64,000 nucleotides of DNA. Origin: Takakia lepidozioides. Taxonomy: Eukaryota > Plantae > Bryophyta. Below are positions 27,485 through 53,406 of this stretch, piece by piece. Within the stretch, counting starts at the first letter, position 1; every line of letters starts with the position of its first letter. Made by a program: the position numbers and the translations under genes. The stretch spans positions 12,958,001 through 13,022,000 of the forward strand of contig CM060734.1 in the NCBI GenBank assembly GCA_030704615.1, given 5' to 3'. The notes beneath the pieces were generated by a model. The model searched no databases, had not been told where the DNA came from, and saw only the letters and a list, made by a program, of their open reading frames with translations.

Positions 27485-27840
27485 TGTCAATTTAAATAAG
27501 CACAGTGTGAAAACAACTAGAATAAAGCTAGTTATTTGTATTTAACACTTGGATTTAGGTCAAGTGTTAAATCAGGTGTCAAGTTTAGTTTGACACCTGA
27601 ACCGTCTTATCTTCACGAGAGCGGCAGTCGCGCAGCTCATCTCTCTCGAGTTGAGCCTGCGCGACCGAGCTCCTTCATGCGTTTAGATCTGAGTGTGCTT
27701 ATGATGGGAGTGTAGGTTGTTGTGGGGTGGAGTCCCATAGCGTGGGGTGCCCCTGGCTCGACTTCTATTTTAAAGAGTGATAGCGATGGATTTCATATTT
27801 CTTGTGTTGAGAGTGTGTGTCCTTTTTAGCTTGTTTATCA
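27485..27840 (+). repeat. Terminal repeat Y1 of element A (356 bp, TG...CA), containing four hairpins
   Basis: Matches 53505-53861 with ~4 substitutions and 1 indel by eye. Confidence 0.95.
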
Positions 27841-27856
27841 CTCGAGAGAGCTGAGC
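27841..27856 (+). promoter_or_regulatory. Candidate self-priming site in the PBS position of element A
   Basis: CTCGAGAGAGcTGAGC immediately follows Y1 and is the reverse complement (15/16) of GCTCAtCTCTCTCGAG at 27635-27650. No TGG-starting tRNA PBS is present. Confidence 0.6.
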
Positions 27857-28157
27857 GTTATCTAGTGTGCTGGTGCTAAGCTAGATACAATGTTTGTTTT
27901 AGCATTATTATAATATATATCTTGGGGCGGGAGTCCATCTGGCCCTGCTGTTTCCATGGGCTGTGCGCGCAGATTTAGTTGTCGTCTCTGCTCGTGAGTT
28001 TGAAAACCAAGAGGTGTGGAGGTTGAAGACTTTGATAGTTGGCTTCCCTACTCTCTTTCACTAGGACGGAGGGAGACGAGACTCGTGTAAACTTTTGGAT
28101 TCGGACCCAAAACAGTCGGGAGTGGCTGGATCACGAAGTGCAAACAGTTTTGTGGTG

Positions 28158-28256
28158 GCTTCCTCTGGTGGAGGTGTTGCTGCTGCACCTGCCGGAGAAA
28201 AGGAGGAAGCGAAGGAGGAGTCTGATGATGACATGGGTTTCAGTCTTTTCGACTAA
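28158..28256 (+). pseudogene. Captured fragment of a 60S acidic ribosomal P-protein (P1/P2-type) C-terminus
   Basis: Translates to ASSGGGVAAAPAGEKEEAKEESDDDMGFSLFD*, the conserved P-stalk tail. No in-frame ATG follows the upstream stop at 28062. Confidence 0.9.
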
Positions 28257-30422
28257 GCTCGGGATGTAGTGTTGCAGCGCATCCGATGGTCTTTCGCAGT
28301 CGACAGTAGGTCGAGCCACAGCCGAATGGAAATGAGGTTGCTGGTAACCCAATTGGAGAAGGTGCAGTTGATGTTATCTCAACTGCAGGTGGCTGCTGAG
28401 CATTACTTAACAGCCGTTTTTATACCTGCGCTGGTGCTGGTAGAGGCTAGGAAGAAGGAGTGAGCTGGAAGATTCCCGCCCTTCTTCAAGCATGCTAGGC
28501 TCAGGGTGGAAGGTTCAACCTACGCGGCTGCTGCTGGAGAGCTAGGAGGTCTGCCACCTATCAGCCTCTGCTCTAGCCTCTCCTCTGCTCTGCTCTGCCT
28601 ATTCTTTGTGAGTTGGATTGTTCCACCGAAGGTAAAGCGCTGGCTGGGATTTGGTGACCAGCGATATTCCGCCAGCATGAGTGGGACTGGCTTCCTTTCC
28701 ATGAAATATTAGGTCTCTCCCGGCTTGGGTTAGTTCCGATTTGCAGGGCAGCAAGTCTGCATTGTTTGTTGTCTCTCGCAATGGCCATTTGCTGCAGGGT
28801 TGGAAGTTCAAGGTCAGGCCCTCAGGTTCCCTTTTCGGGCCAATCTTTGCTGACATTCCGGAAAATCCATACTATGCTATCAGGGTTTTCTGCTTAGCAA
28901 CAGGCCATGTGAACCCTTCTCTCGTGAACGGCCTACACACCAACCCCTTCCTGCATTGGTTCCTTCAGGCACTAGTTACCTTCGCCAATTTGATTCTGGG
29001 GAGTGGGTGTGGAAAGACAGAAACACAGCCCGTTTTTCAAGTACACTGTCAAATTGGACTATAGCCAGCCACTATGAAGGAGTAGTTGTGGGCTGGTTGA
29101 TGTGAGGTTGTCTAGCTGCACATTGCGAGGAAGCAAGCTTTCTTATCTTAGCAAATGGATGGACAGGGTCAGGCTAGATTTTCTAGCAAGTGCGTAAGCT
29201 GCTGTCCAGCAAGGAAAAGCTGATCAGCAATAGAAGCATGAGATGCGGCGTGTGTGACTTGAGATAGATGTACACAGGGAAGGACCAGCCGCGTAGCCTG
29301 CTTTGCGATCAGGTCTTGCATCAGGTCTAGGCGACAGTGGCGGCATTAATGTTTGTGAGACGGGGTGATCTCATATATTAACATTGCAGCCTAGTGAAGG
29401 AAGACCAGGTGAGGCTCTACATACATGACCAGCGGTGCTTTGATCCGGAGTTGCAGTTAGAAATTGTGAGACAAAAAGGAAAAAAAAAACATTGTAGTAC
29501 ATTTGGCATTTCGGCCACCAGCAGGTGCAGGTCCAATTATATCACTTGGTCCTTGAAGTGGTACACCAGGCCGAGCTTCTCCCTTTTGATTTTGCGTTCA
29601 GTTGGAAGCCCGCTATCAGTTCTCAAGATGGGGCAGCTTCATCCCATCGCCTTGGTTCTGTGCATGTCCCTGGTCATGGGGATGTAATAACCACCCTAAG
29701 CCAGTTTAGAGTGGTGTTTGAGGTCCTGGAGAGCTTGAGCGTTTACAGCACCAACGTATACTGTAACCCTCTCTACTATGGCGATCTTCAGGCTGCTCTT
29801 GGGGTATATGCCAATGGTCGATGAAGGTATTAGCACCACCTTGGAAATCACAAATTGAACGTGATGGTCTTATTGCTGTGGTTGATATGTATTTGCCCAG
29901 TACATGAATGGTTGCGGAAAGCCATCCTGGTTGTGGTCACTCTGACAGGGCAGTAGACATGGGCTCTCATACAACAACGATAAGATGGCATTGATAGCAG
30001 CAGCTTCAACAAGGTGTTCTCGTTCTGAAAATCTGGCATACCAATGAGGACATTACCTTTATCATGGTAATTCCACTGTGGAGAGATTGAGTTAAGAATC
30101 TAAGGAATTCTTAGGGAACCAGGGAACAGGGAACCAAGACAAGTATTGAAAAAAAAAAAAAAAAAAAAAAAAAAAACATGTGTTATGTTTAAAGAGCCTG
30201 GTTGGTCATATCTTTGTCAAATGAGCTCCGTTTGACCCAGTTTTGAGGGGATAGCTACAGAAAGGGGATATCTACCTATCTAGACCTGGTTTTTGTTTTT
30301 GAGACTCTGCTAAAAATCTATGGAATTTTTAGAGAGTGAGTGTGCCATGAAAGATCCACAATCCTGTTTCTAGAACCTGTTCTGGTCTACATGAGAGATA
30401 AATCTGGGGATGTACTCCTTGT

Positions 30423-31172
30423 ATGGCTGGGGGGGATGAGGACGTAATTGAAGGGCAGGTCTCTTCTCTTAGCCTATGCACACAAGGGGACAAGATTTAT
30501 GTTTCCCAAGGAACTCAGACTGATTTGAATGGAGAACAGTTGGACGAGTTGATTGCATACTGGGAGTCAGGCATTAGCAGTAGACAACAGACTGCTGTAG
30601 TTGGCGTTGAGGGCCTCAATATCGCTTTGGACAGTCAGAACTCTGTTGGAGCCAGCAGTTCTGTAGCTGTAAGTGAAATACCAAAGTGGATGAAAACTAG
30701 GCTTGGAACACAGCCAAAGACAGCCTCGGGGACCAAGGTGTTCAGCCACAAGGCTATGGTATACTGGAGCAGAGGAGCAGGAGCTACACAAGTTTGTGCA
30801 ATCAGACAGCGTTGCAGCCGGACACGCTCTGCACAAGGCAACCACGAGCGGGGGTTCATTAGCGAGGACAAGTTTGTTCTGTTTGAAGGAGATGCAGTCA
30901 TTCGCAATGAGGACACCCGCAACCATCTCAAAACTTTCGAGTTGAGAGACTATCAGACCCTACCTTTGTTTTCTTTAGTGTTCGGTGAGCGGGAGATAGC
31001 AGAGTGTTGCTTTGTCTCTATCTGGCAGAAAGAGGAGGAGGGTTGGTTAGAGCGAGCTACTGTAGCTTGGGACAAGGTTAGTGGCAGGTTTCTGGACATA
31101 GATATACCTCCTACACCTTACCATCATGCAGAGCGAGGCACTTTGAGAGAAGTCTGGAAGTTGATAGCATAG
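30423..31172 (+). CDS. Extra 249-aa ORF of unknown function upstream of gag in element A
   Basis: Uninterrupted ATG-to-TAG ORF inside the element and in the gag orientation. No recognisable motif. Confidence 0.45.
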   Translation: MAGGDEDVIEGQVSSLSLCTQGDKIYVSQGTQTDLNGEQLDELIAYWESGISSRQQTAVVGVEGLNIALDSQNSVGASSSVAVSEIPKWMKTRLGTQPKTASGTKVFSHKAMVYWSRGAGATQVCAIRQRCSRTRSAQGNHERGFISEDKFVLFEGDAVIRNEDTRNHLKTFELRDYQTLPLFSLVFGEREIAECCFVSIWQKEEEGWLERATVAWDKVSGRFLDIDIPPTPYHHAERGTLREVWKLIA

Positions 31173-31691
31173 ATCAGGATTAGATCTTGCTTGGGCGGGC
31201 TTCTATTCTTCCCCTCCATCTCTGTACTATTTTCATTACCTTGTACTCGTAGTTGCCAAAGCCTCTCTTGGTGGAGGCCAGTCAGTCCGGGGTTTTGGGC
31301 TGGGATATTCTGCAGGATCAGCATTGCAGCTGGATTTTGGTGTGGGGGTGTTGATGTTTTGATTTCTTGTGTTTGGATCCCCCCCAACACCTGCATGCTT
31401 GACTGTGCGCCATGTTGGTTTTGTGTGGGCGCTTGCTTTCATAGGGATTAGGCCGGATTTGATCACCGGTCAATCCTAGAGTATGCTGTCGGTGGTGAGG
31501 CTGGAGTGATGACTAGCAAGACCACCAGTGTTTCTTCTATGGTGAGGCTGGGTTGATGACCAGCCAACCATAGGAGTTCTTGCGGTGGATGCAGGTGCAG
31601 GTGCCCTGAGCCATTGGGATATGACCCTTAGACTGCAACAGGTGCCCACCCGTGTCACTATTAGATTAGTACTAGAGCCTTATAGTGTCAC

Positions 31692-34160
31692 GTGGAGGAG
31701 GTGCACATTGTGAGTGTCATTACGGAGTTACCCAAGGGTTTTGAGGGGAGTACGGCTACAGGCAGTAACAGTGAGAGTGGGTTCACAAGACGAGGTATTC
31801 GGTTCAGACCACCTTCACCGCCACCCTCAACTACTGTAGAGTCAGACACAGACTCGGAGGCTTCATCAACAGGTGTGCAGTTTCATTCGCCATTGTTGTG
31901 GGACGACATGGAGGAGATGTATGGAGCTACCAAGGGGCCTCGTAGGTACTCTGGAGCTGTGGGCACAATCGAGTTGGATGACTTTATCCAGGAGTTCGAC
32001 AGCTGGTGTGATTTGCAGCAGATGCGCAATCCACAGCTATTCACCCCATTCATGGCGTGGAAGGGACTGTTCCAGCATTTGGAAGGCCCGCCTATGGACG
32101 ATTACCACGAGTTCAGGCGAGGACATGAAGCAGAGATTGAGGAGTGGAGGTTGAATTGGTCACCTGACTATGTCTCCATTACTCGAGGCACGACGCGACC
32201 AGTAGCTGCATCAGTACCAATATCTCCCACTGCCAGCACTAGTAGTGGAGCAAGTAGTGCCGGTACTTCTGCAGGTGGTACCAGTTCAAAAGGTGCTACT
32301 ACTCCTCCTGCCACGACTACAACACATGTGCCTAGATTCAACCTGGTGGTGGAGTTCTTCCAGGAGTTGCGGAGGAACTACCAAGGTGTACGGACAGAGA
32401 AGCTGCGAAGTTTGCAAGACTTCCAGCGCAAACCCAGTGAGAGCTTGCGAGAGGCCTACACTTGTATGAGGCGCTTGATAAGTGTGACGCAAGGGGTTAC
32501 TGAAGCTCAGGCAATCTAGTTCTGGTATGGAATTTTGGACAAGGAGCTCAGGAGAAGGGTGCGGGATGCAACCCTGTTACAAGCAGCCCAACCCACATTA
32601 GCAGATGTGTTTCTGCTGGCTGAGCGGATTGAGCTCAACATGGTGGAGGAGCGAGTTGTTACCATTGGGTTTGGCAAGGACATGCCTGCACGAGGCGCAG
32701 CTGCCAGCCCACAGGCACAAGGGACTGCCCAACAGCGTGGTCAGGGGGGCAAGGTTTCCCAACCCAAGTTCCATGGAGCTTACAGGGGACCTCAGGTGCA
32801 GAGGCCCGTGGCATCTTTTGCAGGCCAACAGCAACCAGGGGTGATATGTTGGACATGTGGAGGACCCCATGTCAAGAGAGATTGCCCAGAGAGTGGCAAA
32901 AGGCCGGCACAAACACAGCCTGCACAGTTGCAGTGTGGGCATTGTGGCAAGTATGGGCATGGAGATGCCCAGTGTTATGACTTGCATCCTGAGTTGCGCC
33001 CAGGCCAGTTCCAAGGGAACAATGGTGGCCGGGGGCGAGGTGGACCAGCCCAGAGAGGACAAGGTGGTCAGGCACGAGGTGCAGGCCAAGGGCAAGCTCA
33101 ACATGGCCAAGGACGCGGAGGTCAGGGTGTTGACCAAGGCATGGCCAACCGGCTTCAGCAGCTAGAGCAGAGGCTCGCTGCCATGGCTACAGCTCACGCG
33201 GTACCGACTCCCAGGCGGGATGGTCCACCTCCTATTCCTGAGGGAGGAGATATGGGAGGCATGGGATTCATGTGCGGAGCAGCACTACCACTAGAGCAAG
33301 TGGAGTCTGCTGCAGCCGTGACTCGAGAAGCAGCACGAGTTCCTGAGCCACGAGGTGCAGAGGTGGAATTGGATGCACAGCATGGGGAGGCAAGCCGTCA
33401 GGCGAGGCTTCCTCAGTCATTCACATTGGCGGAGACTGTGTCGACGTCATCCATGGCACCTAGTTCTCGCCCGACTGTTACCGAGGCGGAGGTTACTATG
33501 CCATTGGGGAGAGCTACACGTGCAGCACTGACACCTGCTACCAAGGCTAGTGCAGCCGGTGTGTTATTGGGGGCAGCCACCTCTGTGTGTCAAGCCCCAC
33601 TGTTCTCGGCAACCATGATTGCGACGCCGGGGGTAAGGCCAGCTGCAGTGTTCAGACTAGCAGCAACACTCTGTGAGAGTGGGGAGGTCACTTCATCTTC
33701 TTCGGAGTTAGTGGAAGGTGTAGTGGCAGAGGGATCCTCGGATTTGAGGGTCAAGACTGCCACGGCTGCGCCCTGGCAAGCTGCAGCTGCCAAGTTGACG
33801 GAGCTGCCAGCTAGGCCAGCCTTTGAGCGCGCCATGGTGACATCTGGAGTTGTCTTGTTAGACAACCAGGATGGCATTTTCTCTTTGAGTGGACCGGCAG
33901 GCAAGAAGTACCGGCCACTGCGGGTCTTGTTGGACTCGGGAGCTAAGCCACTGATGTTGGGTAGGGCTGCTATTGCAGGTTTGGGCCTCATGGAGGCGGA
34001 TATGGAGCCTTGTCCTTTCCAGATACAGACATCTCTGGGAGGATCAGAGCAGGCTCGGGGCATGACTCAGTTGGCCATTAGACTGCAGCCGGATCACCCT
34101 ACAGATGGCTCAGTGATGCGAGCCAAGGCCATTGTGACAGACGCGGTCTCTTACGATGTC
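31692..34160 (+). CDS. Element A Gag (two CCHC knuckles) and aspartic protease; one premature TAG at 32517; truncated by the B insertion
   Basis: FQRKPSESLREAY gag motif, CWTCGGPHVKRDC, CGHCGKYGHGDAQC, protease VLLDSGA. Confidence 0.9.
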
Positions 34161-34179
34161 TCCCAGTATGGTCGCCAAA

Positions 34180-34998
34180 TGTCGCGCGGCTTTTACTCAC
34201 CCATCCCTTCGCTATCCGAGGCGGAAACTCCAAGATAGAAGAGTTGGAAATCTCTAAGTACTCAGCCCGCGCAGAACAATCAGTCATGACCTACAGCTAG
34301 TGTATCATGGGGGTGTTTCCTATGCATTTCCCTTTTTGCATTCATCTTAGCTACCTTTGGCATTGATAATTAAGTATCAGTTTGCTTCATCAATCTATCG
34401 GTTTCCTTCACTCATCCATTCAATCCACAGCTTCTCTCAGATCTCTCTACACAGTGTGATTGTATCGTATAAGTATCAGATTATGATTTATCAGGTATCA
34501 GGCCGAAGTCATTATGTCTCTATTCTGCTCTCCAATATCACTACAGCTTTGCATATAACAAGCATCTACTAATCCTCTTTCCTCCTTCATCGTGCTCTCC
34601 ATCTCTTGCCTCCGATCTCCGCTCCTGCCTGACTCCGAAGTCCCCCCCCTTCATTCCCCGTTTCTCCCTTTTATCCTCCTATCCGCGGTTCTAACCGTTT
34701 CCCTCTCTAACCGTCGTCTGTGAACTAACATGTTCCCTTCACAGGTGTTGTTCCCCACAGTCGTTCCCTATTATCGTGACAGCTGTGTCAAGCGGTGACT
34801 GGCTGTGTTTGGCTGTGTCGGGCTGTGACTGGCTGTGTGGGCTGTGTCTGCTGTGACGACCGTGACGGGCTGTGTGGGCTGTGACGACTGTGACGGGCTG
34901 TGTTGGCTGTGTGCCCTGTGACTGCTGTGACGACTGTGACGGGCTGTGTGGGCTGTGACGACTGTGACGGGCTGTGTTGGCTGTGTGGCCTGTGACTG
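34180..34998 (-). repeat. Partial family B LTR (3' portion), followed by TT and an 18-nt PBS/tRNA-like copy at 34160-34177
   Basis: Near-identical to 41584-~42440. Merges into the post-pol CACAGCC array at ~34999. Confidence 0.9.
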
Positions 34999-35342
34999 GC
35001 TGTGATGCACTGTGGTAAGCTGTGATAGGCTGTGACACGCTGTGGTATGTTGTTATAGGCTGTGTTGCGTCGTGATGGGCTGTGATAGGCTGTGTCACGT
35101 TTGTTTTGCCCACCCTGGTCGTATATGCTGGGCCTAGCAACTAGTGTTCCATACTCCGTTCGTAACACTGGTGCAGCCCGTGACTGCTCTTGCGGTTCAA
35201 CATGCAAATCATGCTGCAGGGGTTTGTCATGGATACCACTGTACCCCTTCAACTTATTTGCATTCACTCTTCCCAGCATTTCTTTGTTAATGGTTTGTAA
35301 CATGGCAGTGTTGTTATCATACATCTTTTGTATGACATAAGG

Positions 35343-38300
35343 TCATTTCCACGGTGATTTGAGCTTAGAAGCTTGAATCTTTCCTTTCTTCTGCAACCAT
35401 AGAACCAAATCCCCCGTCTTAAAAGTCTTTAACTTGCCTTCATCAAACTGTTCCTTTCGCTTCATCTGAATTCTGGTCATATTATCAGCTGCATCAGCAC
35501 GTACTTCTTCCACATGGTATAATTCATGTTTCCTGACCTTGATGGAGTCTTGCAATTCCATTCTTTTTCCCCACTCCGTTCTCATGGTAGGTAACAGGAA
35601 TTCCACTGGAAGTAAGGCTTCCATACCATAAACTAATTGGAATGGTGTATACTTAGTTGTGACTTTATATGAAGTCCTGTATGACCACAAAGCTGTCAGC
35701 AGCTTTGTATCCCAATCCGTTCTGTTTGCATTGACTATCTTAGCCAAGATAGTACATAGTATTTTGTTGGTAGCCTCTGCCTGCCCATTACCCTGTGGGT
35801 AATATGTTGTACTCTTTCTATGCACAATCATAAACTCTTTAGTCAACAACTCAATGGTCTCATTCATGAAGTGACTTCCTTGATCACTGATAAATTCTAA
35901 GGGACATCCAAATCGTGTAAGTATGTTCTCGTACAGGAACCTTGCTGTGGACTTGGCTGTGTTGTCCCTCAAAGCTTTAGCTTCCACCCACTTTGTAGTA
36001 TAATCAGTGGCTGTAATTATGTACCTGTTTCGTGTATTCTTGGATGGTGGATTAATTGGTCCAACAAAGTCTAGTCCCCATTTCTGAAATGGTTCCGTAG
36101 GCATTGTAGGATGCAAGGCCATTCTTCCAGATCTCTGCAAAGGTCCTAGCCTCTGACATTCATCACACTTCTGACAATACTCATGTACATCTTTGAACAA
36201 AGTAGGCCACCAGTATCCTGCGAGTAGTATCTTTCTACTGGTAGTCGCTTCTCCAAAATGACCTCCAGCCACTCCTTTATGAACTTCCTCCAAGACTTTA
36301 TTTACTTCATGGTGGTACAAGCATCGTTTTAGTACTCCATCAGGTCCTAACTTATACATTCTGCTTCCTACCATAGTATAAGGTAAAGCTCTGATAGCAA
36401 TTCTCTTCCTCTGCTCCTTGCCATAACTAGGTGGGCACTGACCATGAGCAAGGTAGTATCTGATTGGCCACTGCCAATCTAACCATTCATCTGCACTTCC
36501 TTGCACCTCCATTACAAATAAACTCGCATCAGGTAACTGATCGTCCACTCCTGTGGCGGCCTCTCCTGTTGTTAGTCGTGACAAATGATCTGCCACAAGA
36601 TGCAAACGGCCAGGCTTGTAAATAACCTCGAACTCAAACTCATGCAAGATTATTAACCACCTCGCTATCCTTCCACTTATCAAAGGTTTGTTCACCAGAT
36701 ATATCAGAGCCTGGTGATCCACATAAAACATAAACTTTCTTCCCAATAGGTAATGCCTGAATTTCTTGACTGCATAAATCATTGCCAATGCTTCTCTTTC
36801 CGTTGTACTATAGTTCCTCTCAGCACTGTTCATCAATCGGCTAGCATAGTACACAGGTGAATCTATATTTCCTGTAACATTCTGGGCTAACACCGCACCC
36901 AACGCTTCTCCTGATGCATCGCAGTGAACATGAAATACTACATGCCAGTGAGGGTTAATCAGCACAGGTGTAGTTGTTACTGACAGTGTAAGTTCCTCAA
37001 ACGCCTGTTGACATTCAGCTGTCCAGGCAAACACTGCATCTTTCTTCAGAAGCTTGCTCAATGGTGCTGCTATTTGTGCATACCTTTTGACAAATCTTCT
37101 GTAATAACTGGTTTGCCCAAGGAATCTCCTTAAACTCTTAACATTCACTGGTGGTGGAGAGACTTTAATGGACTCTGTCTTCCTGGGATCCACAAGAAGT
37201 CCCTTCTTACACACAATGTGTCCCAGAAGCACCCCTGAGTTCACACAGAAAGTACACTTCTCTGGATTCAAGCCCAGACCTCTCATCCTGCATCTGGCCA
37301 GGCATAACTCCAATTTATGCAAGTGCTCATTCTTAGAGCTGTACACACTGAAATCATCCAAGAATACCTGCATGAAATCATCCAGATACTCATGAAAAGA
37401 TTCACTTATCACTCTCTGAAAGGTCGCTGGTGCATTACAAAGTCCAAAGGGCATGACTTTGTATGCATAAGCCCCTCAGTGTGTGATGAAAGCTGTTTTC
37501 CCTTGGTCTTCTTCTGCCACTTGCACTTGATTATAACCACTGAAGCCATCCATGAATGAGTACATCTCATGGCCTGCCACAGTGTCTAATACTGCTTCTG
37601 TGAATGGCAAAGGGAAAGGATCTTTCTTCGTACAAGCATTCAGCTTCTTATAGTTCACACATACTCTCAGTTTGCCATTCTTCTTGGGAACTATAACAAT
37701 GGGTGACAACCAAGTTGTATACTCTATTGGGTATATAAACTTAGCCTCAGCCAACTTCTTTATCTCTTCTCCAACCTTCTGTGCGTAGTTGGGATTCATT
37801 CTATACCTCGCCTGCTTGATTGGTACTGACCCTGGTTCCAGTTCAATCTTATGCTGACAGACTTCAGGTGGTATCCCTTTTAGATCCTCATAGCTCCAAG
37901 CAAATACATCTCTGTATTTGATGAACAAGCTTTTAGCTTCTTCGAAGAATTCCGGCTCCAAATCAGCTCCTACTTTTACCATCCTCGGTTCCTCCTGAGT
38001 TCCCACATTTACTTCTCTCACCTGCTCATCAGCTGTGATTGTCCAACCAGTCACCACTTCATCCTTTAAGCTCACAGTGGCTGGTTCTTCTAGGATTTCT
38101 ATCTCTCCCTCCTTTTCTTCATAGAAATGTGGTGGGTAACTGCTGGTTTCCTCTTCAATTGGTGTTGCCGACACTACACCACAGCAGATACCTCTTAAAC
38201 AACTTAGGCTTTCCAGCCGCATCTCCGCAACCTGCTCCCATTCTGGGTGTGCAGCAAATAGGGTAGCTTCCTGCTCCTCATCCAGTCCTCCTCTCCAGTC

Positions 38301-40974
38301 ATACTCTCTGACTCCTCGAGGTCTTCTTGTAGCAGGTAATCTACTAGATTTCTTTGTGGTAATTTGTATCTCGTGCATCCCATTATGCACAGTTAGTAAC
38401 TGAGAATTCCAGTCATGGAATACCCTGGCCTGTTTCAGCCATGGACGTCCCAATAATAAGGAGTAAGCCTCCATGACTTCATCCATTTTTAATACAGTTA
38501 CTGTGATCATAAAGATCATTTTCTGTATCTGTATCTTAACTCCTCTTATTAATCCCAATGGCTATACACTTCTTTGATCTGCCATTGTTACTGTAAATGG
38601 GGCTGGTTTCATGTTACTTAGACCAAGCTTCTTCCTTAATTGGTCTGTCATGATATTTACTCCAGAACCACCATCTATCAGTACATCAGTTAGTTCTGTG
38701 CTTCCAATTCTCAATTGGATTACTGGCATAGAATCATCAAAGTCCATGACTGGTTCTCGCCCTTCCGGCTTCACATTATAACTGGTCACCTTGCTGTTCA
38801 GGTCTGTGTTTCCTGTCTCTTGGGCAATTCGATTGATTGCCTGATACAGCCTGTGCCTACAATAAGGTGCCACAGCTAATAGCTGTCCAATGGTAATTTC
38901 TGCTTTGGTCTGACATATTACTGCAGCCAAAGTCTCTTCATTACTTTGCATGTCTGCATCTTCTTTTTTCCTTTCTTCCTCACTCCCTTCTTTTTCTCCA
39001 TCCGAATCAGAGGAATCTGCCACAGGAATATCAGTACTCTTTTGCATTTCCCTTATAGTATCTGCCACTTCCTTGTGCAGTTCCTTCTCATCTTTCCAAG
39101 TCTCTTCATCTTCAGGCATATCATTGCCACTTCCAGTCTCATCTTCTTCCTCTTCTACTGGAGGTATTAGTTTGGCTTTACTTCTTGTTACTATCATTGT
39201 ACTTACTTCTGGTACAACACATGGCCTAACCATGTGAGCTGCCACCACTGGGCCCTCATTCACAGGAGCTCTCATCTCATTCTGGTGTCTTATCCAGAAT
39301 GAACAGGCTGCCTTGCGATGTCCTGGCTGATTACAATAGTAACATAGCTCTTCACCATTGGGTCCTCGCCCTTGGTCTGTTCTTGGATTATTTCTATAAT
39401 CCTGATTCCCGGGCTGGTAATTCCCCCTTGGGTTACCCTGATAGTTGCCTCTGGAATTCCCTTGGTAATTCCCTCTTGAATTACCTCTTCCTTCCATGCC
39501 ATTGTTATAACCACCAGACCTACCATAGTGGTCCTGATCATTATTTCTTCTTGGCTGGGGCTGCACCTGATGCACCCTTACTTGCCTAGGTTCTCTTGCA
39601 GCTGTCCTTCTGTTGTAGTAACAATTCTCAGTAGAATGGTTATCCATTTTACAGATAGTACAGTGTTTCTCCTTCATGTGGCATTCTGTGGTGGTATGGC
39701 CTTCATTCTGGCATTTTGCACACCATACACCCTTCCTCCAATGTGTTGCAGCCTCTGTGGCATACTTCTTCAAGATTTCTTCCAATTTTTTTTCATAGTT
39801 ATCCCTCTTCAACTTCTCCTTTCTCTTCAACAGTTTCATGCTTCTTCTGCTTCAGCTGTTGTAAACTTCCATACACTTCATCCTCAGTTTTACTTGTCCT
39901 GAACCTATTTCGAAATGCTGTATTCAAGCCATTCCAGGTTAGGAAATGATTATCAGGGAATCTTGCATACCATTCACTTGCTTTCTTGATAAGTGAACAA
40001 GGAAACAGTCTCATCTTGGCATCATCGCCATTCTCATTGTTCACTATACACATGTGCTCAAATTGGCTAATGTGTACATCGGGATCCCCTTTTCCTGAAT
40101 ATATTGGAAAGGGTGGTTTTGCCCGTGTTGGTTGTAACGCCATCTGTGGCCCTTCCTTCTGCCCACTGGCAGGTGCTGGCACCCTTGCTGGTGCTGGTCC
40201 TTCTGGACCTGTTGTTTTTGTGGTGGATCTTCCACCAAGTGGTGGCCCTTGAGCACTCCTTGCTTCTGGTCCCACGATATTCACAGTATTCCCAGCTTCA
40301 GTTGCACTACTTCCCACACTCCCTGTCCCCCCAGAGCCAGATCCAGGCAGCCCGCCTGATCCCCCTGAGCCGACACCTTCGTTGGCCTGTGATCCAAGTG
40401 CTCCACTTGATCCAGGTCCAACGGGTTGGGATGTCCTGGTTGTAGTCTCAACCTCAGCTGTTGGGTCTACTTCTTCATATTCTTCCTCTTCTAATTTCTT
40501 CTCTCTGTTTTCATCCTCCAAGTTCTGCCCTTGGGTTTCTTCTTCACTCATGTAACTCAACTGTAATGGTGTTGGAGAGTCTGAACTCTCCGTTGGCTCT
40601 GCCACATCCTCTTCTCCTTCTTCATCTTCTGCTTCAGAAACTGGAGTTCCTGCTTTTGGTGTTCCATGCCAACTCTTATCAAAGATTTCTGTCAAGTCTT
40701 TTATCCAAGGATGTACCTCAGATCTTTCTCCTCGTGATTGATCTTCTTCCTGTACCAATTCCCTTAATCTTTCTTGCAAAGAAACAGAAGGAGTGGCATC
40801 CAACTCTAGTTCTTCCGGTATAGGTGATGCACTTTTTGATCTTGATGGTGTGAGAGGTCCAGATGATTCCCCTATGTCTATTCCTCTCTCCCAAAGATAT
40901 GGATAATTAGCTTTCAGATAGCTTTCTCTTTTTGATGAATATCTTTGTCGTCTAGCTTCTCTTTCATCACTCAT
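35343..40974 (-). pseudogene. Family B gag-pol (Gag CCHC, PR, RT, RNase H, integrase) with stops and a 266-bp gag deletion
   Basis: CYYCNQPGHRKAAC, LIDGGSG, FLDDFSVY, HCDAS...YSTTERE, GGHF...CDEC, WGLDFVGP, FISDQG, NGQAE. The deletion corresponds to 63367-63632 of the third copy. Confidence 0.95.
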
Positions 40975-40995
40975 GTCCCATGTCTTTCATTTCTT

Positions 40996-41691
40996 TTAAT
41001 GTGGCAATAACCAAAACTCTCTTCTGTAATATCTCTCGTATATGCCTGGGTTTCTTTCAAGCTTCAATGCACCCTTGGCTATACTTGAAATCTCCGTTAC
41101 CATATAACCATATGGCAAACAAGTCTGAAAAGCTGTTCTTGGTGTGAGTTTGATCCACAAAATATCCTTTGGAATCCAATTCTTTACCAGTACAAGCTCT
41201 TCATGCATATGAGTATAAACATTCACCTTTCTTTCTTCCCAGCCTTCAAACTCTACTCGTTTAATGGATAGCAACGCTATCACATAAACTAATGTTGGTA
41301 ACCAACGTGCTCTTCCTCTACAGGCTACCTGATAAATCTTTATCACTCCTTTCTCCAGACCCCATTCTGGATCAGCATCATGCACTCGTTTAAGAATATT
41401 TTCTTTACATCCGTCTGGCAATTCCAAGAACCTTTGAAAGAATTGTTTGGACAATCTTTCTTCCTTCGTTCCACAGGGAATTTGATTCACTTCAAATTCT
41501 TTAATGGTCCAACCACCATGATCCCACCAGATGCCTGTCACATCTGGTTGTTCATGTCCCAGGTCCCCAGTATGGTCGCCAAATGTCGCGCGGCTTTTAC
41601 TCACCCATCCCTTCGCTATCCGAGGCGGAAACTCCAAGATAGAAGAGTTGGAAATCTCTAAGTACTCAGCCCGCGCAGAACAATCAGTCAT
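40996..41691 (-). CDS. Family B ORF0 (231 aa) starting inside the LTR and reading through the PBS
   Basis: Open from the ATG 108 nt inside the LTR end, through the PBS, to a stop 22 nt before the gag ATG. The LTR-encoded part is codon-conserved in the old copy at 9927-10034. Confidence 0.6.
   Translation of the reverse strand: MTDCSARAEYLEISNSSILEFPPRIAKGWVSKSRATFGDHTGDLGHEQPDVTGIWWDHGGWTIKEFEVNQIPCGTKEERLSKQFFQRFLELPDGCKENILKRVHDADPEWGLEKGVIKIYQVACRGRARWLPTLVYVIALLSIKRVEFEGWEERKVNVYTHMHEELVLVKNWIPKDILWIKLTPRTAFQTCLPYGYMVTEISSIAKGALKLERNPGIYERYYRREFWLLPH
41566..41581 (-). promoter_or_regulatory. Primer-binding site of family B (tRNA-Arg(UCG)-like)
   Basis: TGGCGACCATACTGGG lies 2 nt after the LTR CA and is complementary to a tRNA 3' end ...CCCAGUAUGGUCGCCA, similar to plant tRNA-Arg(UCG). 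Confidence 0.8.
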
Positions 41692-42596
41692 GACCTACAG
41701 CTAGTGTATCATGGGGGTGTTTCATATGCATTTCCCTTTTTGCATTCATCTTAGCTACCTTTGGCATTGATAATTAAGTATCAGTTTGCTTCATCAATCT
41801 ATCGGTTTCCTTCACTCATCCATTCAATCCACGGCTTCTCTCAGATCTCTCTACACAGTGTGATTGTATCGTATAAGTATCAGATTATGATTTATCAGGT
41901 ATCAGGCCGAAGTCATTATGTCTCTATTCTGCTCTCCAATATCACTACAGCTTTGCATATAACAAGCATCTACTAATCCTCTTTCCTCCTTCATTGTGCT
42001 CTCCATCTCTTGCTCCGATCTCCGCTCCTGCCTGACTCCGAAGTCCCCCCCCTTCATTCCCCGTTTCTCCCTTTTATCCTCCTATCCGCGGTTCTAACCG
42101 TTTCCCTCTCTAACCGTCGTCTGTGAACTAACATGTTCCCTTCACAGGTGTTGTTCCCCACAGTCGTTCCCTATTATCGTGACAGCTGTGTCAAGCGGTG
42201 ACTGGCTGTGTTTGGCTGTGTCGGGCTGTGACTGGCTGTGTGGCTGTGCCGGGCTGTGACTGGCTGTGTGGGCTGTGTCTGCTGTGACGACTGTGACGGG
42301 CTGTGTGGGCTGTGACGACTGTGACGGGCTGTGTTGGCTGTGTGTTGGCTGTGTGGCCTGTGACTGCTGTGACGACTGTGACGGGCTGTGTGGGCTGTGA
42401 CGACTGTGACGGGCTGTGTTGGCTGTGTGGCCTGTGACTGCTGTGACGACTGTGACGGGCTGTGTGGGCTATGTAACCCCCCTCTATAGTGTGCTGCTGT
42501 CACCCCTAAGGCTCCTGTTGGTCTCAGTCTGTGCAAAAATTAAGGGTACCCTACAGATCCCGTATAAGTGTCTAAGTCCCCTACAGTCCTCTAACA
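41584..42596 (-). repeat. Family B 5' LTR (1013 bp, TG...CA) with internal CACAGC(C) minisatellite
   Basis: TGTTAGAGG...CCGCGCGACA on the minus strand, followed by the PBS. Confidence 0.95.
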
Positions 42597-42656
42597 TATG
42601 ACACAGCCTGTCACAGCTCAACACAGCCTACTAAAATTACACGAACCATAGAATCA

Positions 42657-45600
42657 GTGACAAGTGGACACATAAAAACTTCAGGAAAATGGATGACGGA
42701 AGAGGAAACGGAAATTACTTTAAAAATAGACACGTGGAGGTCAGGGTGCGACACACAGCAGAGAATGAAGTGCAAGGACAGGTGTCAAAAAGAAAGAGGA
42801 AAAGAACGGCCGTCAAATGGGATGAAAGGCGGGCCCATTAATGAATACGGAAAAAGGGAAACAGATCGAACGGCAAGTACAGAAAAGCTGAATTCATGTC
42901 GCATGTGTGATCCTAGTGGACTATCCAACAGGGAAAGTCCACTAAAGAAGATAAAAGTTAAAATCCAGTCACAGCAAATACAGCCAATAGAAAACCAGAG
43001 AAATGATCAAGAAAATGAAAGAAAATTGGGCGCAAGAGGCGGCGTCGTTCTGAGTAACGGGCGTCTCGACAGGACAGGCCATAAATGCTATAACTTGGAA
43101 ACTATGGAGGAACTAACCAACTATACGCTCGCAATATTACTTACGCAATGGCATAGACACGAAACGACAGAGCAGAGCTTTTCTCTTGAACAATGCTTGC
43201 AAGCCCCGCAGGCTTACAAGAGATTACCCATAGCTTTCTGCGGCAACCATACGTTTCTGCTTTGTGCACTACAGGCATTCCTGCAGTTGTTACAGCCAAA
43301 GCAGTTCTGTGAGTCTAAGATGAAGAGAGTGAGAGGAATGGAGGAAATCAGGGTGAAGAGCACCACAATTCTGCAGAAACAAACAATGGCTACCCCACAG
43401 GCGATAAAGATACTGGAGGAGCTGAGATTGGAAGGATTGCAAAGTCTAGATTGGACACTACACCATAGACAGTACATGTTACAATTTTTGCAGAACTTTG
43501 AGCCAAGGACAGGAACAACAACGGTGAAGGGAGTTGAATTAATGCTTACTCCCCTATACCTCCAGCAATTGTTTCGATTGCCAACAGGTCAGGTGCATGT
43601 GGGGGAACACAGGGCAAGACTACAAATAGGGGACTTATTCCAAGAAGGGAGTTTCTTTAAAACTCAGGGTTATGCTTGTACCAAAGCTGTGTACCCAGGG
43701 TTAAGAGAGATAGGCCAGGTATTGAACGTTCTGTTTGCCCTGAAACAGAACCAACAATATTTGAGCAGATCCTTCACAGAGGAAATACTCAAAGGCCTGA
43801 AGGGACAAGAGGTACAATGGGCGGACATTATGTACAACGCACTAGTAGAGGAGATGAAAAGATTACAAGGTACTACCGCAAAGTCTCCTATCATAGTGTC
43901 TGGCCCAATCATTGCTCAAATAATCCTTAATTCTGGCATACTTAATGCACAAGAAAGGAAGGAAATGGGAGTGTTTGAGCCAGAAACAACTGCAATGGAA
44001 GAGCAAGGCTCTTCACACAGTGAGGGTGGACTAGCAGCACAACCCGAGACTAAGATGCAGAGAAGGGGAAAGACTGTAGTGGCGGATCCACTGGCTTCAC
44101 GGATTCCGCATGATAATGTTTCCCAAGCTCATGACCAGGAAGGGGCACAGCAGCACAAAAGAATGTTATTACTGGAAGCAGGACCTTCAGAGAGGGAGGA
44201 GGAAGTTACTTCTGCATCACAGCCAACACAGCCACTTGAACGACTTGTCACAAGGTCACAAGTTATCCATGCAGCTCAACCCGAAATAATTGATTTGGAA
44301 AGTGAAGGGATAGAGATTCCAACTACAGAGCAGATAGTGGCAGAAATAGAGAAAGGGGACCTTCTCTATGAATATTCTGGTCTGGTCAAGGAGACAGAAA
44401 TCCCAGAGGTGCAACAGTTGCCCAAGGGAAATCCTGAGGTGCATATAATGCACACACCTGTGTTGGAGGTACCACAGGCGGAAGGTCATGACACTGTAAC
44501 ACCAGTCATAGATGAAGTAGTTCAGGAAGAAAATCCGGTGGGACAATGGCCTGAATGGTTAGTGAGACATCATACTGTTGAAGATCGGGAGGAACAGCAG
44601 CAACCTCACCATGATGACCCTCAACAGGCAATGCTGATGAGTTCCATAGGCAGGACACTTAATTTGTTGGGGACTTATGTCAAATCCCATGTTCCAATTA
44701 CCCAATTGACAGCCTTGAAAAGAGGAACTCAGGAAGGAGTTTGAGGCTCGACTTGCCACTGAGTGTGCAAACAAGGTCGATGAAGAGGTCACTCTCAAGA
44801 TGAAGCAGGACTTGGGCAATACAGAAATGGCTTTGCAGTTGGCCAAGCAACAACTGATTGAGGCAAACCTCACGCAAGACCAGTTGCACGAAGCACATAA
44901 GCAACAGCTATACCAAATGCAGGTGCAGCATGAAAGCAAGTTGCAAGAACTGAATGCACTACATACGGAGTTGCAGACAGTGCATAACAGGATGGAGATA
45001 CAATGTGCTACAATTACAACTATGCTTGACCAATCAACAAAAGAAATAAACAGTCAAGCGGAAAAATGTACGAAGGCAGAAGAAGAGAATGTTGAGCAAA
45101 TGAAGCTCATTGTCGATATGAAGAATACAATCTGTCGCCATGAAGATACTTTCAAGCAATACAGGCAGAGGGAAGCTGATCAAGAGAAACACATCGTGGA
45201 GTTGCAACAAACCATCGTGGCCAATAGAAATGAAATCGCGGTCAGTAACAAGGCTTCGAAGGAAGCCAATAATCTACTTGCTGCCTATGCGCAATTGGTT
45301 GAGCCACAGGCGAAGCGCATGGAGGCTTTACAACAGCAGTTGGAATTGTACAAGCTAAGAGAAGAGCAAACTCTCAGGGGAACCACAAGCAGCTTGGTGG
45401 ATAACAGCCTTATGCAGGTCTGGTTAGCACAAGGGCCAGTAGAGGGCAAAAGCCCACGGAAACTCACCCAAAGCGAGATGAATGAGCTCAGACTGCAGGT
45501 GCAGAACATTGCCACAACTACTATAGACAATGTCTATAGTAGGATAGCAGAGTTACAAGAGGATGTAGACGGACTCCAGACTCAAGTGGAAGACCTCACT

Positions 45601-46872
45601 TCAAACATCGACCAAAGAGTCTATATCCCTCAAGAACAGCTAATGGCTTCTTATTTGCAAGCCAGAACTCTGGCTTTTCAGTCTTCACAGGAGGTGCAGG
45701 AAATGCCAATGATACAGGAGCCAGTACCACCACCACCACAACAGGTCACTGTACCAATAGCTGAACCTGGGGTTACTACAACCACACCACAGCCACCACA
45801 GCCGGAGGTATGGGGCAATGCCGCTTTTAACCCACCTAAAACTCCAGCTGCAAGGGAGTACAGCAGGGCTATGCTTATGCCCTTCAACCAAATTCCCATC
45901 ATGTTGGATTTGGCTTGGAAAGAATTTAGTCCTCCGTAGTCATTCGCACATTACTACCAAATCATGCGTATTTGGCTGCCAGTGGCAACTAGGACTAAAG
46001 TTCTTCCAAACAATCGACATATTGAAGATCATCACTTTGCACAATACTGGCACGAGGCAGGTACCATGTTGAGGGAATTGGTTGCTTTCCAGGTTGTACA
46101 TGGACTCATTTATACCAAGACCAAGGAGATAGCAAGTATTGTCATGGGGTGCGGGCTATACTACGCTGCTTGTTTTCTGGTACGTTACCACATTGAGCAA
46201 CAAAAGATGCAAACACGCTTTCAAAGTTACTCCAGTGGAGATCATTGGGTATTACCTTCGGTGCCACCTCATATATACCTATATGACCCAAAAGTTATGA
46301 TGCAGAAGGATTCTCAAATTCGTTCATGATTTCAAGCAGCCTGCAACCAATTGTCAACACAGAAATTCGGACTTGATGACATTTTCTATAAGGGACATGT
46401 GGCATGGAAGTACTTGCACGCTGCACCAGTAATTGGTACCCCACTCATCTGGACAGACAAGGAGCTCAGTGCCTACACCAATTTTGCTGTTCAGCGGTTA
46501 CACCAAGTTGTAAAATACAAACTTCCAGACATGGTAGGACAGCATTGTATGCCCCAGATGATTCCACAAAAAGTTCGAAAATTAAAACACCTGAGAGGCG
46601 ATGAGGATTCTGATACAATTGTTTCTTCACACAATTCTTTTGACATGGGAGAAGACTATGCAATTCAGATGGAAGAGAAGAAACAAAGGGGATCTCCTAT
46701 GCCGGAAAGATTACCTCGATATCAACCTCCAGAAGGCCTCACTTATCCAGGTAGTGATCAACCATCTCCATCAACCAGAGACAGACCTCGGGCTCGTACA
46801 CACAGCCCACCACGAAACTCTCAACGTCAACAAGGTGCTCACTCACAAAGGTTTGCTACTCGGAAACAGTAA
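42657..46872 (+). pseudogene. Family B 3' extra ORF (~1400 codons; Athila/SIRE extra-ORF-like segment plus long coiled coil), one frameshift and two stops
   Basis: Colinear ORFs 42657-44744, 44800-45939, 45964-46329 and 46351-46872 end just before the PPT. Homologous segments occur at 7245-9290 and 57551-58470. Confidence 0.8.
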
Positions 46873-46893
46873 ACCGTGAGGACACGGCTTTTT

Positions 46894-47828
46894 GGGGGGA
46901 AGGGGTAATGTTAGAGGACTGTAGGGGACTTAGACACTTATACGGGATCTGTAGGGTACCCTTAATTTTTGCACAGACTGAGACCAACAGGAGCCTTAGG
47001 GGTGACAGCAGCGCACTATAGAGGGGGGTTACATAGCCCACACAGCCCGTCACAGTCGTCACAGCAGTCACAGGCCACACAGCCAACACAGCCCGTCACA
47101 GTCGTCACAGCCCACACAGCCCGTCACAGTCGTCACAGCCCACACAGCCAGTCACAGCCCGGCACAGCCACACAGCCAGTCACAGCCCGACACAGCCAAA
47201 CACAGCCAGTCACCGCTTGACACAACTGTCACGATAATAGGGAACGACTGTGGGGAACAACACCTGTGAAGGGAACATGTTAGTTCACAGACGACGGTTA
47301 GAGAGGGAAACGGTTAGAACCGCGGATAGGAGGATAAAAGGGAGAAACGGGGAATGAAGGGGGGGGACTTCGGAGTCAGGCAGGAGCGGAGATCGGAGGC
47401 AAGAGATGGAGAGCACGATGAAGGAGGAAAGAGGATTAGTAGATGCTTGTTATATGCAAAGCTGTAGTGATATTGGAGAGCAGAATAGAGACATAATGAC
47501 TTCGGCCTGATACCTGATAAATCATAATCTGATACTTATACGATACAATCACACTGTGTAGAGAGATCTGAGAGAAGCTGTGGATTGAATGGATGAGTGA
47601 AGGAAACCGATAGATTGATGAAGCAAACTGATACTTAATTATCAATGCCAAAGGTAGCTAAGATGAATGCAAAAAGGGAAATGCATAGGAAACACCCCCA
47701 TGATACACTAGCTGTAGGTCATGACTGATTGTTCTGCGCGGGCTGAGTACTTAGAGATTTCCAACTCTTCTATCTTGGAGTTTCCGCCTCGGATAGCGAA
47801 GGGATGGGTGAGTAAAAGCCGCGCGACA
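46894..47828 (+). repeat. Family B PPT (46894-46905) and 3' LTR (46909-47828, 920 bp)
   Basis: GGGGGGAAGGGG-taa-TGTTAGAGG...GCGCGACA. Shorter minisatellite than the 5' LTR. Confidence 0.95.
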
Positions 47829-48269
47829 GTAGTGGCAGAGGGATCCTCGGATTTGAGGGTCAAGACTGCCACGGCTGCGCCCTGGCAAGCTGCAGCTGCC
47901 AAGTTGACGGAGCTGCCAGCTAGGCCAGCCTTTGAGCGCGCCATGGTGACATCTGGAGTTGTCTTGTTAGACAACCAGGATGGCATTTTCTCTTTGAGTG
48001 GACCGGCAGGCAAGAAGTACCGGCCACTGCGGGTCTTGTTGGACTCGGGAGCTAAGCCACTGATGTTGGGTAGGGCTGCTATTGCAGGTTTGGGCCTCAT
48101 GGAGGCGGATATGGAGCCTTGTCCTTTCCAGATACAGACATCTCTGGGAGGATCAGAGCAGGCTCGGGGCATGACTCAGTTGGCCATTAGACTGCAGCCG
48201 GATCACCCTACAGATGGCTCAGTGATGCGAGCCAAGGCCATTGTGACAGACGCGGTCTCTTATGATGTC
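47829..48269 (+). repeat. 441-bp direct duplication of element A protease region (copy of 33720-34160)
   Basis: Constant offset of 14109 bp. The only difference I noticed is C/T at 34154/48263. Confidence 0.95.
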
Positions 48270-48739
48270 CTCGTGGGTGGGGCAGTGTTATACCCCATGG
48301 GCTTCACCCTGGACTTTTGGGAGGAGTCAGCATTCTAACAGGCCCCTGATGGCAGTACAGCAGTCAGGGGATGGTCAATCGTGCACAGCTCCCTGTGACT
48401 TCATTGGGGGTTTGCGGCTACCCAACGGGGCAAGAATGCCAACCCTAGCCACCTTTACAGCTGCGTTAGTTGGCCTGAGAGTTGCTGGGAAGGCAATGCC
48501 CATGCAGAGGAATATTGTCACCCACCTCCAGCAGAGCAGGATGATATGCATGGTATGGTGGAGTGGCCTGCCTGGTTGCTCCACACTCCATTGTGGGGTA
48601 ACGCAGGATTTGCAGCAGTTGCTGATGCGACGGGTGCACAAGCCTGTGTAGAGGCTTTGTACCGTCAGGGAGAGGAGAGGTGGGTATTGCACCAGGAGCA
48701 CCTCAGTTGTCACCATTGGATACCACACACTATTATTGT

Positions 48740-49740
48740 GTGGCAGTATCCGGATAAAGGCATTTGCCTCTGGACTTGTTTGGCGGGATCAGCACCGTAT
48801 TGGCTGCTGGTTTACAGGCATGTGTGCGGGTAATGCGTTACCTGATGTGTTTGAGAGGATGAGACTGCACGACGGCGTCTTACTGCGTGTTGCTCAGTTG
48901 GTACAAAACAGCATTACCTGCTTTGTTGCTAGTGTCTGCAGTTCGTGGATACCAACAAGCCTGCCAGCAGACATTTCGTTGCTGGGGGCGCCGGATTTGT
49001 AGCAGGTTGGCTCCATTGATCTTGTAGTGGCAGGTTGGCCCCTGCCAAGGCATTCATTAGCCGGGCATGACAATGGATTGCGAGACTCGAGAACGGAACT
49101 GTCTTTTTGGGAGATGGTGCGGATTTTGCGCCACTTGCAGCTTCATCAAGCTGTATCGCCAGCATACATCTTGTAGAATGTGCAACTGATGGGCGATTCT
49201 CGGGCCAGGGTGATGGCCAGTGTGCATCAAGTCCGGTCGTGGTTGGGTTGACAGTGCTGCTGGATGCATCTGCAGTGGGATCACGGCTCATCGTCCACGG
49301 CTATGGTAGACTAACTTGATTCCACCCCACCCGCACTGCCAAGCGTGCATTTGATGGGTGTGCAGAGCGGCCAACACCCTCATAGTGGACACATTTTGGA
49401 CATAGGGAGGCAGTTCTCAACGTGTGAGACTGAGACCGTTCGCCTTTGGCAGTGGTCAAGAGGGTGGGTCAACCACGAGCCGCATTACCTACACTGCTCA
49501 GCTTCCCAGGATCCCATGCTTTTCGGGATGGTGGACCTGGCCTCCTATGGGATGCTCAGTTGCAACAGTTAGTGGAGCCTAATGCCGACGAGCGGCGCGG
49601 CTATGGTTTTCACTGGGACCACGCGGCGGTGCTTCTCTCTTTCTGAGGCATCACGTCGTCAGGTGTTGGGGCAAGCAATGGATCTCAATTGCTTGACCTG
49701 GATTATCAGCTTGGCTATGGCTGAGCAACGTAGAGTGCGG
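48740..49740 (+). pseudogene. DNA (cytosine-5)-methyltransferase domain, DNMT3-like, within the element A polyprotein (frameshifted in this assembly)
   Basis: Motif I DLFGGI (48773-48790). Motif IV DLVVAGWP/CQG (49018-49051), followed by GLRDSRT..FWEMVRIL. Motif VI YIL*NV (49165-49182). Motif VIII LDASAVGS/AHRPRLW*TNL (to 49318). Motifs IX-X EPNADER..AM.F and SEASRRQVLGQAMD (49654-49683). All in canonical order. Confidence 0.9.
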
Positions 49741-50149
49741 AGTGCACTTCCCTTGACGGTCTCTCTGCCTACCGAGACGGTACAACACAGGCGCGAGTGG
49801 GGGGCGAGCGGTGAGGACCACGGGGTGTAGACATCCATGGCACACGTTGGAGGTGCTCGAGGTTCAGAGGGAGTTGGCAGCCAAGCCAGCTGTGATGGAT
49901 GAGGTTGGGAATTCTTTTCGGATGAGGAGGTTCTCAATGATGAGAATGATGGGGCAGGATGAGGCCTTTCATTGACTGAGCCGGAAGGGAGTACTGCTCA
50001 AGAGGTTCAAGCATAGCAACCACGGGACGCGTCCTCTACCTCTAAGCCCACTGGACTTAAGGTTGCAGTTACGGAGGATAATTGGGAGCCTGACATTGGA
50101 CCCATTGTCCCGGAGGAGAGAGACGACGTATACGGCGGTTCCTGAGGGC

Positions 50150-53015: not shown

Positions 53016-53158
53016 TGCATGTTGTGTGGGTCTGCTAGAGGGGCAGCCCCCATACTGGTGTGTGATCGATGCTCTAGAGGTTGCATATGGGATGCTTGAC
53101 TCCACCTCTTGAGATGGTTCCGGATGGGGATTGGTTATGTCCACATTGCATTGGATAG
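53016..53158 (+). CDS. PHD finger at the integrase C-terminus of element A
   Basis: CMLCGSARGAAPILVCDRCSRG[W]HMGCLTPPLEMVPDGDWLCPHC, a C4HC3 finger once one missing G at ~53083 is restored. Confidence 0.9.
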
Positions 53159-53406
53159 TGGGAGTGGATACAACCATGGAAGGCTAACAAAAACGCAAGG
53201 CCCAGCTACTAGGAGACCTTGAACACACGAGGTCCTGGCTCAAGTTCACAGATTGCAAGACGGCGACTAACGATGGGGCTACTCTTGTACCCGGCCTCTT
53301 GGTCTATAGGGTTTGAGTGCAATAGGGACAGTGATAGAGGACTTAGTACGGCTGTGGCTATTACATCTTGTAGCTATCTGGAGGTAGAGGGACCTATCCA
53401 CCAGCT

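Follow-up and report, generated by a model that had tools for sequence, protein, structure and literature searches.

How can the two halves of a single retrotransposon come to lie in opposite orientations in a chromosome, accompanied by a third copy of the terminal repeat and flanked by long duplicates of host sequence? The question is raised by a 64,000-nt stretch of the moss Takakia lepidozioides (assembly GCA_030704615.1, contig CM060734.1, positions 12,958,001 to 13,022,000 of the forward strand), here called the window, in which a 13.7-kb long terminal repeat (LTR) retrotransposon, element B, interrupts another, element A. All coordinates are positions in this window, and the structure was read from a self-comparison of the window together with direct reading of the sequence. 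In the assembly, the 5' half of B is confirmed to be inverted against its 3' half, inside element A (Table 1). A single aberrant event starting from one parent very probably produced this arrangement, and this is the common core of the three readings judged likeliest here. The reading tentatively favoured is one aberrant retrotransposition, in which the U3 end of one B complementary DNA (cDNA) would have been joined by integrase to that cDNA's own array of repeats downstream of pol (the post-pol array), and the U5 end later to element A. The likelihoods given to the different readings are judgements and were not computed, and statements about the cited papers refer to the parts of their text that were available.

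Layout and joints of the folded element

The fold joint is found where the middle LTR ends in CTAACA at 42596. The sequence that follows, TATGACACAGCC, is the reverse complement of a second B copy in the window, read from 58475 downwards. The left arm matches that copy from 58494 upwards and the right arm starts at 58475; the 18 bp between these points (58476-58493 of the second copy) are absent from the folded element. An initial annotation, made from the sequence alone, had described the U3 terminus as joined to the element's own post-pol array in the opposite orientation, the U5 terminus at 47828 as joined cleanly to host DNA, and the inverted arm as ending 18 bp short of the join; its coordinates all hold, and so do these three observations. 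Two of its descriptions have to be amended. The halves were said to make exactly one element, but they make one element minus 18 bp plus an extra piece of 837 bp at 34161-34997, consisting of a third, 5'-truncated LTR with TT and a primer binding site (PBS); the complete 5' LTR, both arms, the gap and the 3' LTR amount to 12,849 bp by summed lengths. The reference copy, which had been called intact, is contiguous across the fold point but only there, as it stops at 57551 against A-like pol and has no LTR in the window. The A-like pol fragment that adjoins it at 57551 extends over 57073-57553 and is 85% identical to 51485-51968.

Table 1. Coordinates of the folded element B, its host and its reference copy in the window
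Feature	Position	Strand	Remarks
Host duplication, left copy (protease region of element A)	33720..34160	+	1 difference from 47829-48269
TT (unprocessed) and PBS at the left end, up to the tRNA boundary	34161..34179	-	one C fewer than the 18-nt PBS
LTR1, third LTR, from LTR nt 158 inside the U3 repeat array, without polypurine tract	34180..34997	-	
Left arm of B: leader, gag, reverse transcriptase, RNase H, integrase, then post-pol 10-bp repeat array	34998..41563	-	Pfam, breaks of the open reading frames, arrays
PBS of the element, complementary to the final 18 nt of tRNA-Arg(ACG)	41564..41581	-	
LTR2, complete 5' LTR, 1013 bp; processed U3 end forms the fold joint	41584..42596	-	
Right arm of B: rest of post-pol array, extra open reading frame(s), polypurine tract	42597..46908	+	
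LTR3, complete 3' LTR, 920 bp; processed U5 end at host	46909..47828	+	
Host duplication, right copy; element A resumes at 48270	47829..48269	+	
Fold-point reference in the second B copy: 58476-58493 lost, 58472-58481 the 10-nt PBS-tail complement	58472..58493	-	
Host element A, Ty3/gypsy type, recipient of the insertion	27485..53947	+	RNase H and integrase matches 51041-52650; terminal repeats, AGGG flanks

Both the U3 end (42596) and the U5 end (47828) stop at CA, without the outer dinucleotide, and the bases shared across the joints number 0+1 at the fold and 0+0 at the host (47828/47829). Integrase is known to leave CA ends without the outer dinucleotide after 3' processing, and judging from their last bases both ends look integrase-made. 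At the opposite border of the insertion, 33720-34160 is repeated as 47829-48269 with one difference in 441. The hallmarks of one-ended integration are thereby found in B, namely a processed CA end joined without homology and another, abnormal end accompanied by a 441-bp duplication instead of one of 4-6 bp; the initial annotation had linked large duplications to one-ended events, and the size fits the published cases (PMC5041404). The reading frame of element A is the same on both sides of the insertion. Family contigs in the sequencing data, which comprise contigs from ten runs, continue across 33719/33720 and likewise past the right copy into A at 48270.

The left end keeps TT and the PBS except for one C of a run of four (17 of the 18 bases), and directly adjoins the host. 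A pattern scan for transfer RNA (tRNA) retrieved 17 loci, 12 of them called tRNA-Arg(ACG), and in each of these 12 the encoded part that follows the T-loop motif is identical to the element PBS (15/15), the added CCA completing the 18. During reverse transcription, copying of the primer halts after 18 bases at the modified A58, and the left end of B stops at the base after the T-loop motif of tRNA-Arg(ACG). The succession expected of a plus-strand strong-stop terminus (LTR, terminal dinucleotide, PBS to the tRNA boundary) is thus present there, with 17 of 18 bases. The stop of the LTR-TT-PBS piece at the tRNA boundary points to a reverse-transcription intermediate, and as read from the bases the left end is apparently the signature of a plus-strand strong-stop end and not of plain host resection. 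The earlier statement that host repair resolved the free end cannot stand in that form, since this end carries an extra LTR-TT-PBS piece ending at the tRNA boundary. Alternatively, the PBS-host joint can be described, equally briefly, as a 3-nt microhomology with one filler base; either way the joint lies at PBS base 16-18. A second version of the tRNA was considered for the two outermost bases of the left end and rejected, as these are found in none of the 12 called tRNA genes and in one of the five uncalled loci. That locus, a tRNA-like stretch uncalled by ARAGORN (L002, 3285-3906 of its contig), carries the alternative two bases and is probably unrelated. At its other border, LTR1 begins at a 7-nt motif common to the U3 array and the post-pol array, with one extra base, and the switch point is the nearest upstream CACAGCC of the 11 in the array. 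No central polypurine tract adjoins the fold, the nearest of 10 tracts of at least 13 purines in the left arm lying about 390 bp upstream.

The common origin of the parts is indicated by the LTRs. No difference separates LTR1 from LTR3 in their last 600 bp, LTR2 departs from both at four places, and all three are less than 1% apart, with 0, 3 and 1 private substitutions (LTR1, LTR2 and LTR3) in 656 ungapped columns and with array indels private to each copy. At the positions matching 34337 and 34509 a T is present in each of the three, alleles which account for at most 1.0% and 0.04% of the aligned family depth in run X2, and 1.0% and 0.2% in run X1 (depth sums, not copy numbers, over the best 40 of 126 rows). 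The close similarity of the three LTRs, together with these rare alleles common to all of them, argues for one parent and one event; the sublineages or ages that would differ between the halves of two separate insertions were not seen in what was a partial test. The 441-bp duplicates, with their one difference where 3.2 are expected at the age of the LTRs (P(<=1) 0.18), fit the same age, in line with the equally low divergence that had been predicted for LTRs and duplicates. The two terminal repeats of element A are 98.6% alike, from which A appears to be somewhat older than the B insertion.

Readings of the event

According to the favoured reading, self-attack would have freed a plus-strand end at the fold point. 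This end would then have been trimmed by 18 nt to the nearest CACAGCC unit. It would next have been joined to a displaced plus-strand strong-stop DNA, by way of the similar-looking U3 array, or have been copied from a minus strand that carried the tRNA; capping by strong-stop DNA and a tRNA-bearing template would each yield a left end that stops at the tRNA boundary. A cut of the minus strand near the fold would release a linear molecule whose U5 end was good and whose other end bore the PBS tail, the former being inserted by integrase at 47829 and the latter joined by host repair 441 bp away, which would duplicate the interval. The fit of the arms is what this reading explains best, because one cDNA that attacks itself leaves arms abutting within 18 bp, while two independent breakpoints would fall so close on a 12,849-bp element in about 0.3% of cases by chance (37/12,849). 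Several of the ingredients have been reported: dead-end strong-stop DNAs accumulate in Ty3 particles (PMC5371799), a single-stranded PBS tail is kept by about half of Tf1 cDNAs (PMC11042837), inversion autointegration has been found in plant particles (PMC7197481), and one bad end gives rise to duplications of hundreds of bases (PMC5041404).

Several points weigh against such a course of events. Two separate one-ended integrase reactions are needed, and the capture of the free end, for which the literature consulted holds no description, works only if the fold point lies in the repeat array, which makes up about 215 of the 12,849 bp. The left terminus is one base off the 18-nt PBS and reads equally well as microhomology plus a filler base. 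The LTR arrays differ by several indels, more than expected of a fresh cDNA, so that they must have changed later if the reading is correct, and the LTR differences are private to each copy, so the template LTR is not identifiable. Self-attack within a single cDNA molecule is, from the sequence, likely and no more than that, given that two sibling cDNAs account about equally well for the extra piece on the left.

A further peculiarity of the fold concerns the PBS itself. Ten nucleotides complementary to the PBS tail span the fold point in the second copy; no other exact 10-mer of this kind is present in about 35 kb scanned on both strands, and the site is the best PBS-tail pairing window of 9,078 (-14.6 kcal/mol, the next being -14.0 and -13.4, a lead of 0.6). 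Family contigs mostly match 8 or 9 of the 10 bases at this place, and the folded element's own bases are among the lost 18. The match was noticed after the fact and may be due to chance. It is doubtful that the single-stranded PBS tail of an unprocessed end paired with a PBS-like 10-mer in its own post-pol array, steered the other end into the paired stretch by means of integrase, and gave a product that reached the chromosome; no report of PBS tails guiding integrase was found in the literature consulted.

The closest rival involves two sibling cDNAs from one particle, one of them an asymmetric-LTR deletion product, and it may be regarded as possible but on the unlikely side. In the deleted sibling, the minus strand would have left the U3 array for the post-pol array in a jump, losing the extra open reading frame (ORF) and the polypurine tract (PPT), borrowed strong-stop DNA of the other sibling for its 5' LTR and run into the tRNA, which was still attached, so that its U3 end was good while its U5 end bore a PBS tail. 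Integrase would have joined this U3 end to the plus strand of the sibling at the fold, and the U5 end of the sibling into A, host repair joining the tailed end. In this way, one and the same polymerase jump would account for the truncation of LTR1, for the lack of the PPT and for the TT-PBS tail; the same route has been proposed for asymmetric-LTR proviruses of HIV-1 (PMC9278108), and both integrase steps are of the good-end/bad-end kind tested experimentally (PMC5041404). The price is the 18-bp fit of the arms, which with two molecules is a coincidence of about 0.3%, or of about 1 in 11 should the site have been selected by the tail. Pairing of the PBS tail at the fold point could have tethered the attack, although its lead over the next windows is thin (-14.6 against -14.0 and -13.4), the commoner family versions match at 8 or 9 of 10 bases, and the element's own upstream bases are lost. 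An improbable course is that integrase acted once only, at the U5 end (47828), and that a host polymerase extended the idle U3 end from the fold point, template hops then producing LTR1, the PBS and the duplication. Aberrant HIV ends have been found joined to viral DNA in either orientation, with several templates possible (PMC5041404), and the 3-nt microhomology at the PBS-host joint and the 7-nt motif at the array joint, with one extra base each, would suit such hops, as would a family version upstream of the fold point that has 5 nt in common with the LTR end at an offset of 3 nt. Joints of this type are usually homologous (PMC5041404), however, whereas the fold joint has no upstream shared bases with respect to the second copy and its CA is untrimmed; moreover, an exit within two bases of the tRNA boundary after a tract of 837 nt would be a coincidence.

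An assembly artefact, by which repeats of a very high-copy family were wrongly joined, is very unlikely. Both families are indeed very high-copy, and the joints are supported by the assembly only. Contigs were aligned to 33000-34775 (X1, X2, X3, X5) and 42547-42646 (X2, X4, X1, X5), and none of the 32 matches listed per comparison bridges 34160 or 42596 (55,813 and 2,889 more pieces lie beyond them). A contig bridging 42596 would be expected among the longest matches, so that its absence from those listed counts mildly against the joint; among the matches listed for 33000-34775, none contains a strand-changing joint at 47828. The best runs contain 0.85 of the words of the locus, close to the 0.856 that 0.5% of private change would leave, and the sequenced sample may accordingly lack this copy. 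Against an artefact speak the three joints at biologically defined bases (CA, CA and the tRNA boundary) and the repeats themselves, which are non-identical, with private changes in each LTR and one difference in the duplication, and yet have rare alleles in common among the LTRs. The least credible reading is that of successive genomic insertions, of B into A and of a deleted B into the 3' region of the first, followed by loss of the 5' half of the first B. Nested insertions favour the 3' non-coding region and are sometimes of the same family (PMC6911290), but a 441-bp duplication is not the result of a deletion, host sequence on the left continues from 33719 into its copy in the frame of A with no trace of B, the LTRs have ages and rare alleles in common, and the 18-bp fit would again be chance.

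The two elements and their surroundings

Element B is a Ty3/gypsy LTR retrotransposon, with the reverse transcriptase-RNase H-integrase order (Pfam), TG...CA LTRs, PBS and PPT all present, the PPT having been read from the sequence and being also present in family contigs. Its gag-pol is broken by stops and frameshifts. Among 7,972 candidate relatives, 3,776 were scored as homologues, the best at about 51% identity and the named ones from plants (about 40-51%). The features of non-chromovirus OTA or Athila-like elements comprise the lack of a chromodomain and of an extra RNase H, an extra 3' ORF and non-coding tandem arrays (PMC6317226). Element B, compared with this lineage by features alone, possesses the extra ORF and the tandem arrays, and has no Pfam match to a chromodomain or an extra RNase H at E 0.001. 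The extra ORF(s) of the right arm matched no Pfam family, and an Atlas search gave leads only (best score 0.78). With respect to the second copy, the left arm is 94.9% identical over 34933-39827 and the right arm 90.9% over 42597-43539; arm-by-arm identity (88.8-96.0%) follows the region and not the lineage, and was not used as evidence. A distant relative of B is located at 7634-10028, its identity being 68% in the extra-ORF region and 75% in the LTR.

The terminal repeat of element A is permuted, with part 2 on the left (27485-27840) and part 1, GC, part 2, T and part 1 on the right (53418-53947), after a purine tract. AGGG is present on both flanks, and the cut is inside a perfect 10-bp palindrome (53499-53508). 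From its sequence, this arrangement resembles what would be left by opening a two-LTR circle at a CA-NN-TG site in its interior, or else a split direct repeat, and it is possibly as odd as the folded B element itself. Just after the left repeat, 27842-27858 is by eye nearly complementary to the repeat interior at 27631-27651, a candidate self-priming site; an exact 10-nt complementarity test of this region, at one offset only, gave no match. In the leader of A, 28165-28256 is a short stretch reminiscent of a ribosomal P protein at its acidic C-terminus, and we take it to be perhaps a captured gene piece, while a Cys/His-rich frame at the end of pol (52990-53150) presumably resembles a PHD finger. 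Other observations are a run of 28 A at 30149-30176, perhaps the tail of a non-LTR insertion in A, and a pair of inverted repeats of 476 bp, 92% alike, at 12622-14348.

Meaning of the locus and comparison with known systems

Autointegration is commonly regarded as a dead end. The present locus suggests that autointegration or one-ended products can still end up in a plant chromosome, and that the sequence of a genome can reveal a strong-stop intermediate. It provides a searchable signature (LTR-TT-PBS directly at the host, a large duplication and an inverted arm), which would escape standard LTR finders or be taken by them for nested insertions; the genome contains thousands of B family copies, in which the frequency of such events could be measured. 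The locus is a single one in broken elements, with no evident function. No plant chromosomal fold-back of this kind was found among the literature matches listed, a search which left subscription journals mostly uncovered and did not include supplements.

Most of what is known of one-ended integration comes from retroviruses that were treated with drugs or carried mutations. In avian sarcoma-leukosis virus (ASLV) and HIV-1, as apparently in B, one end is joined by integrase and the other by host enzymes, with a duplication of hundreds of bases and, at the bad end, additional viral DNA that may have either orientation (PMC5041404). The retroviral cases were induced by drugs or mutations in cell culture, whereas B is a fixed plant insertion, with another integrase-like joint in its interior and with a bad end defined by the tRNA. 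Asymmetric-LTR proviruses of HIV-1 provide another parallel, although a fold-back, a PBS tail and a large duplication as in B are not described in the available text (PMC9278108). In Tf1, integrase-independent insertion also involves single-stranded PBS ends, the tail pairing with a similar sequence (PMC11042837). There, the tail anneals at the insertion site (through Rad52), whereas in B homology at the host joint does not exceed 3 nt, and it is the fold that has the PBS-like site. Complex plant elements with three LTRs are likewise single insertions formed before integration (PMC1950507; bioRxiv 10.1101/452573). These are described as two elements with one LTR in common, mostly with flanking target duplications, whereas B has an inverted LTR, a truncated LTR with a PBS tail, and a duplication of 441 bp. 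Finally, the inversion autointegration of Ty1 and of the Arabidopsis element SISYPHUS joins an LTR end to the opposite strand of the element's own interior (PMC7197481). A processed LTR end on the opposite internal strand is found in B as well (42596/42597), but the Ty1 and SISYPHUS products are both-end circles and dead ends, whereas in B only the U3 end is self-joined and the product is in the chromosome. Element B has no circle with a short duplication, and is not an inversion circle, because its U5 end is in host DNA and its fold shows an 18-bp loss. It works like half an autointegration, and is an unusual fossil, at one locus and real in the assembly, built from known steps.

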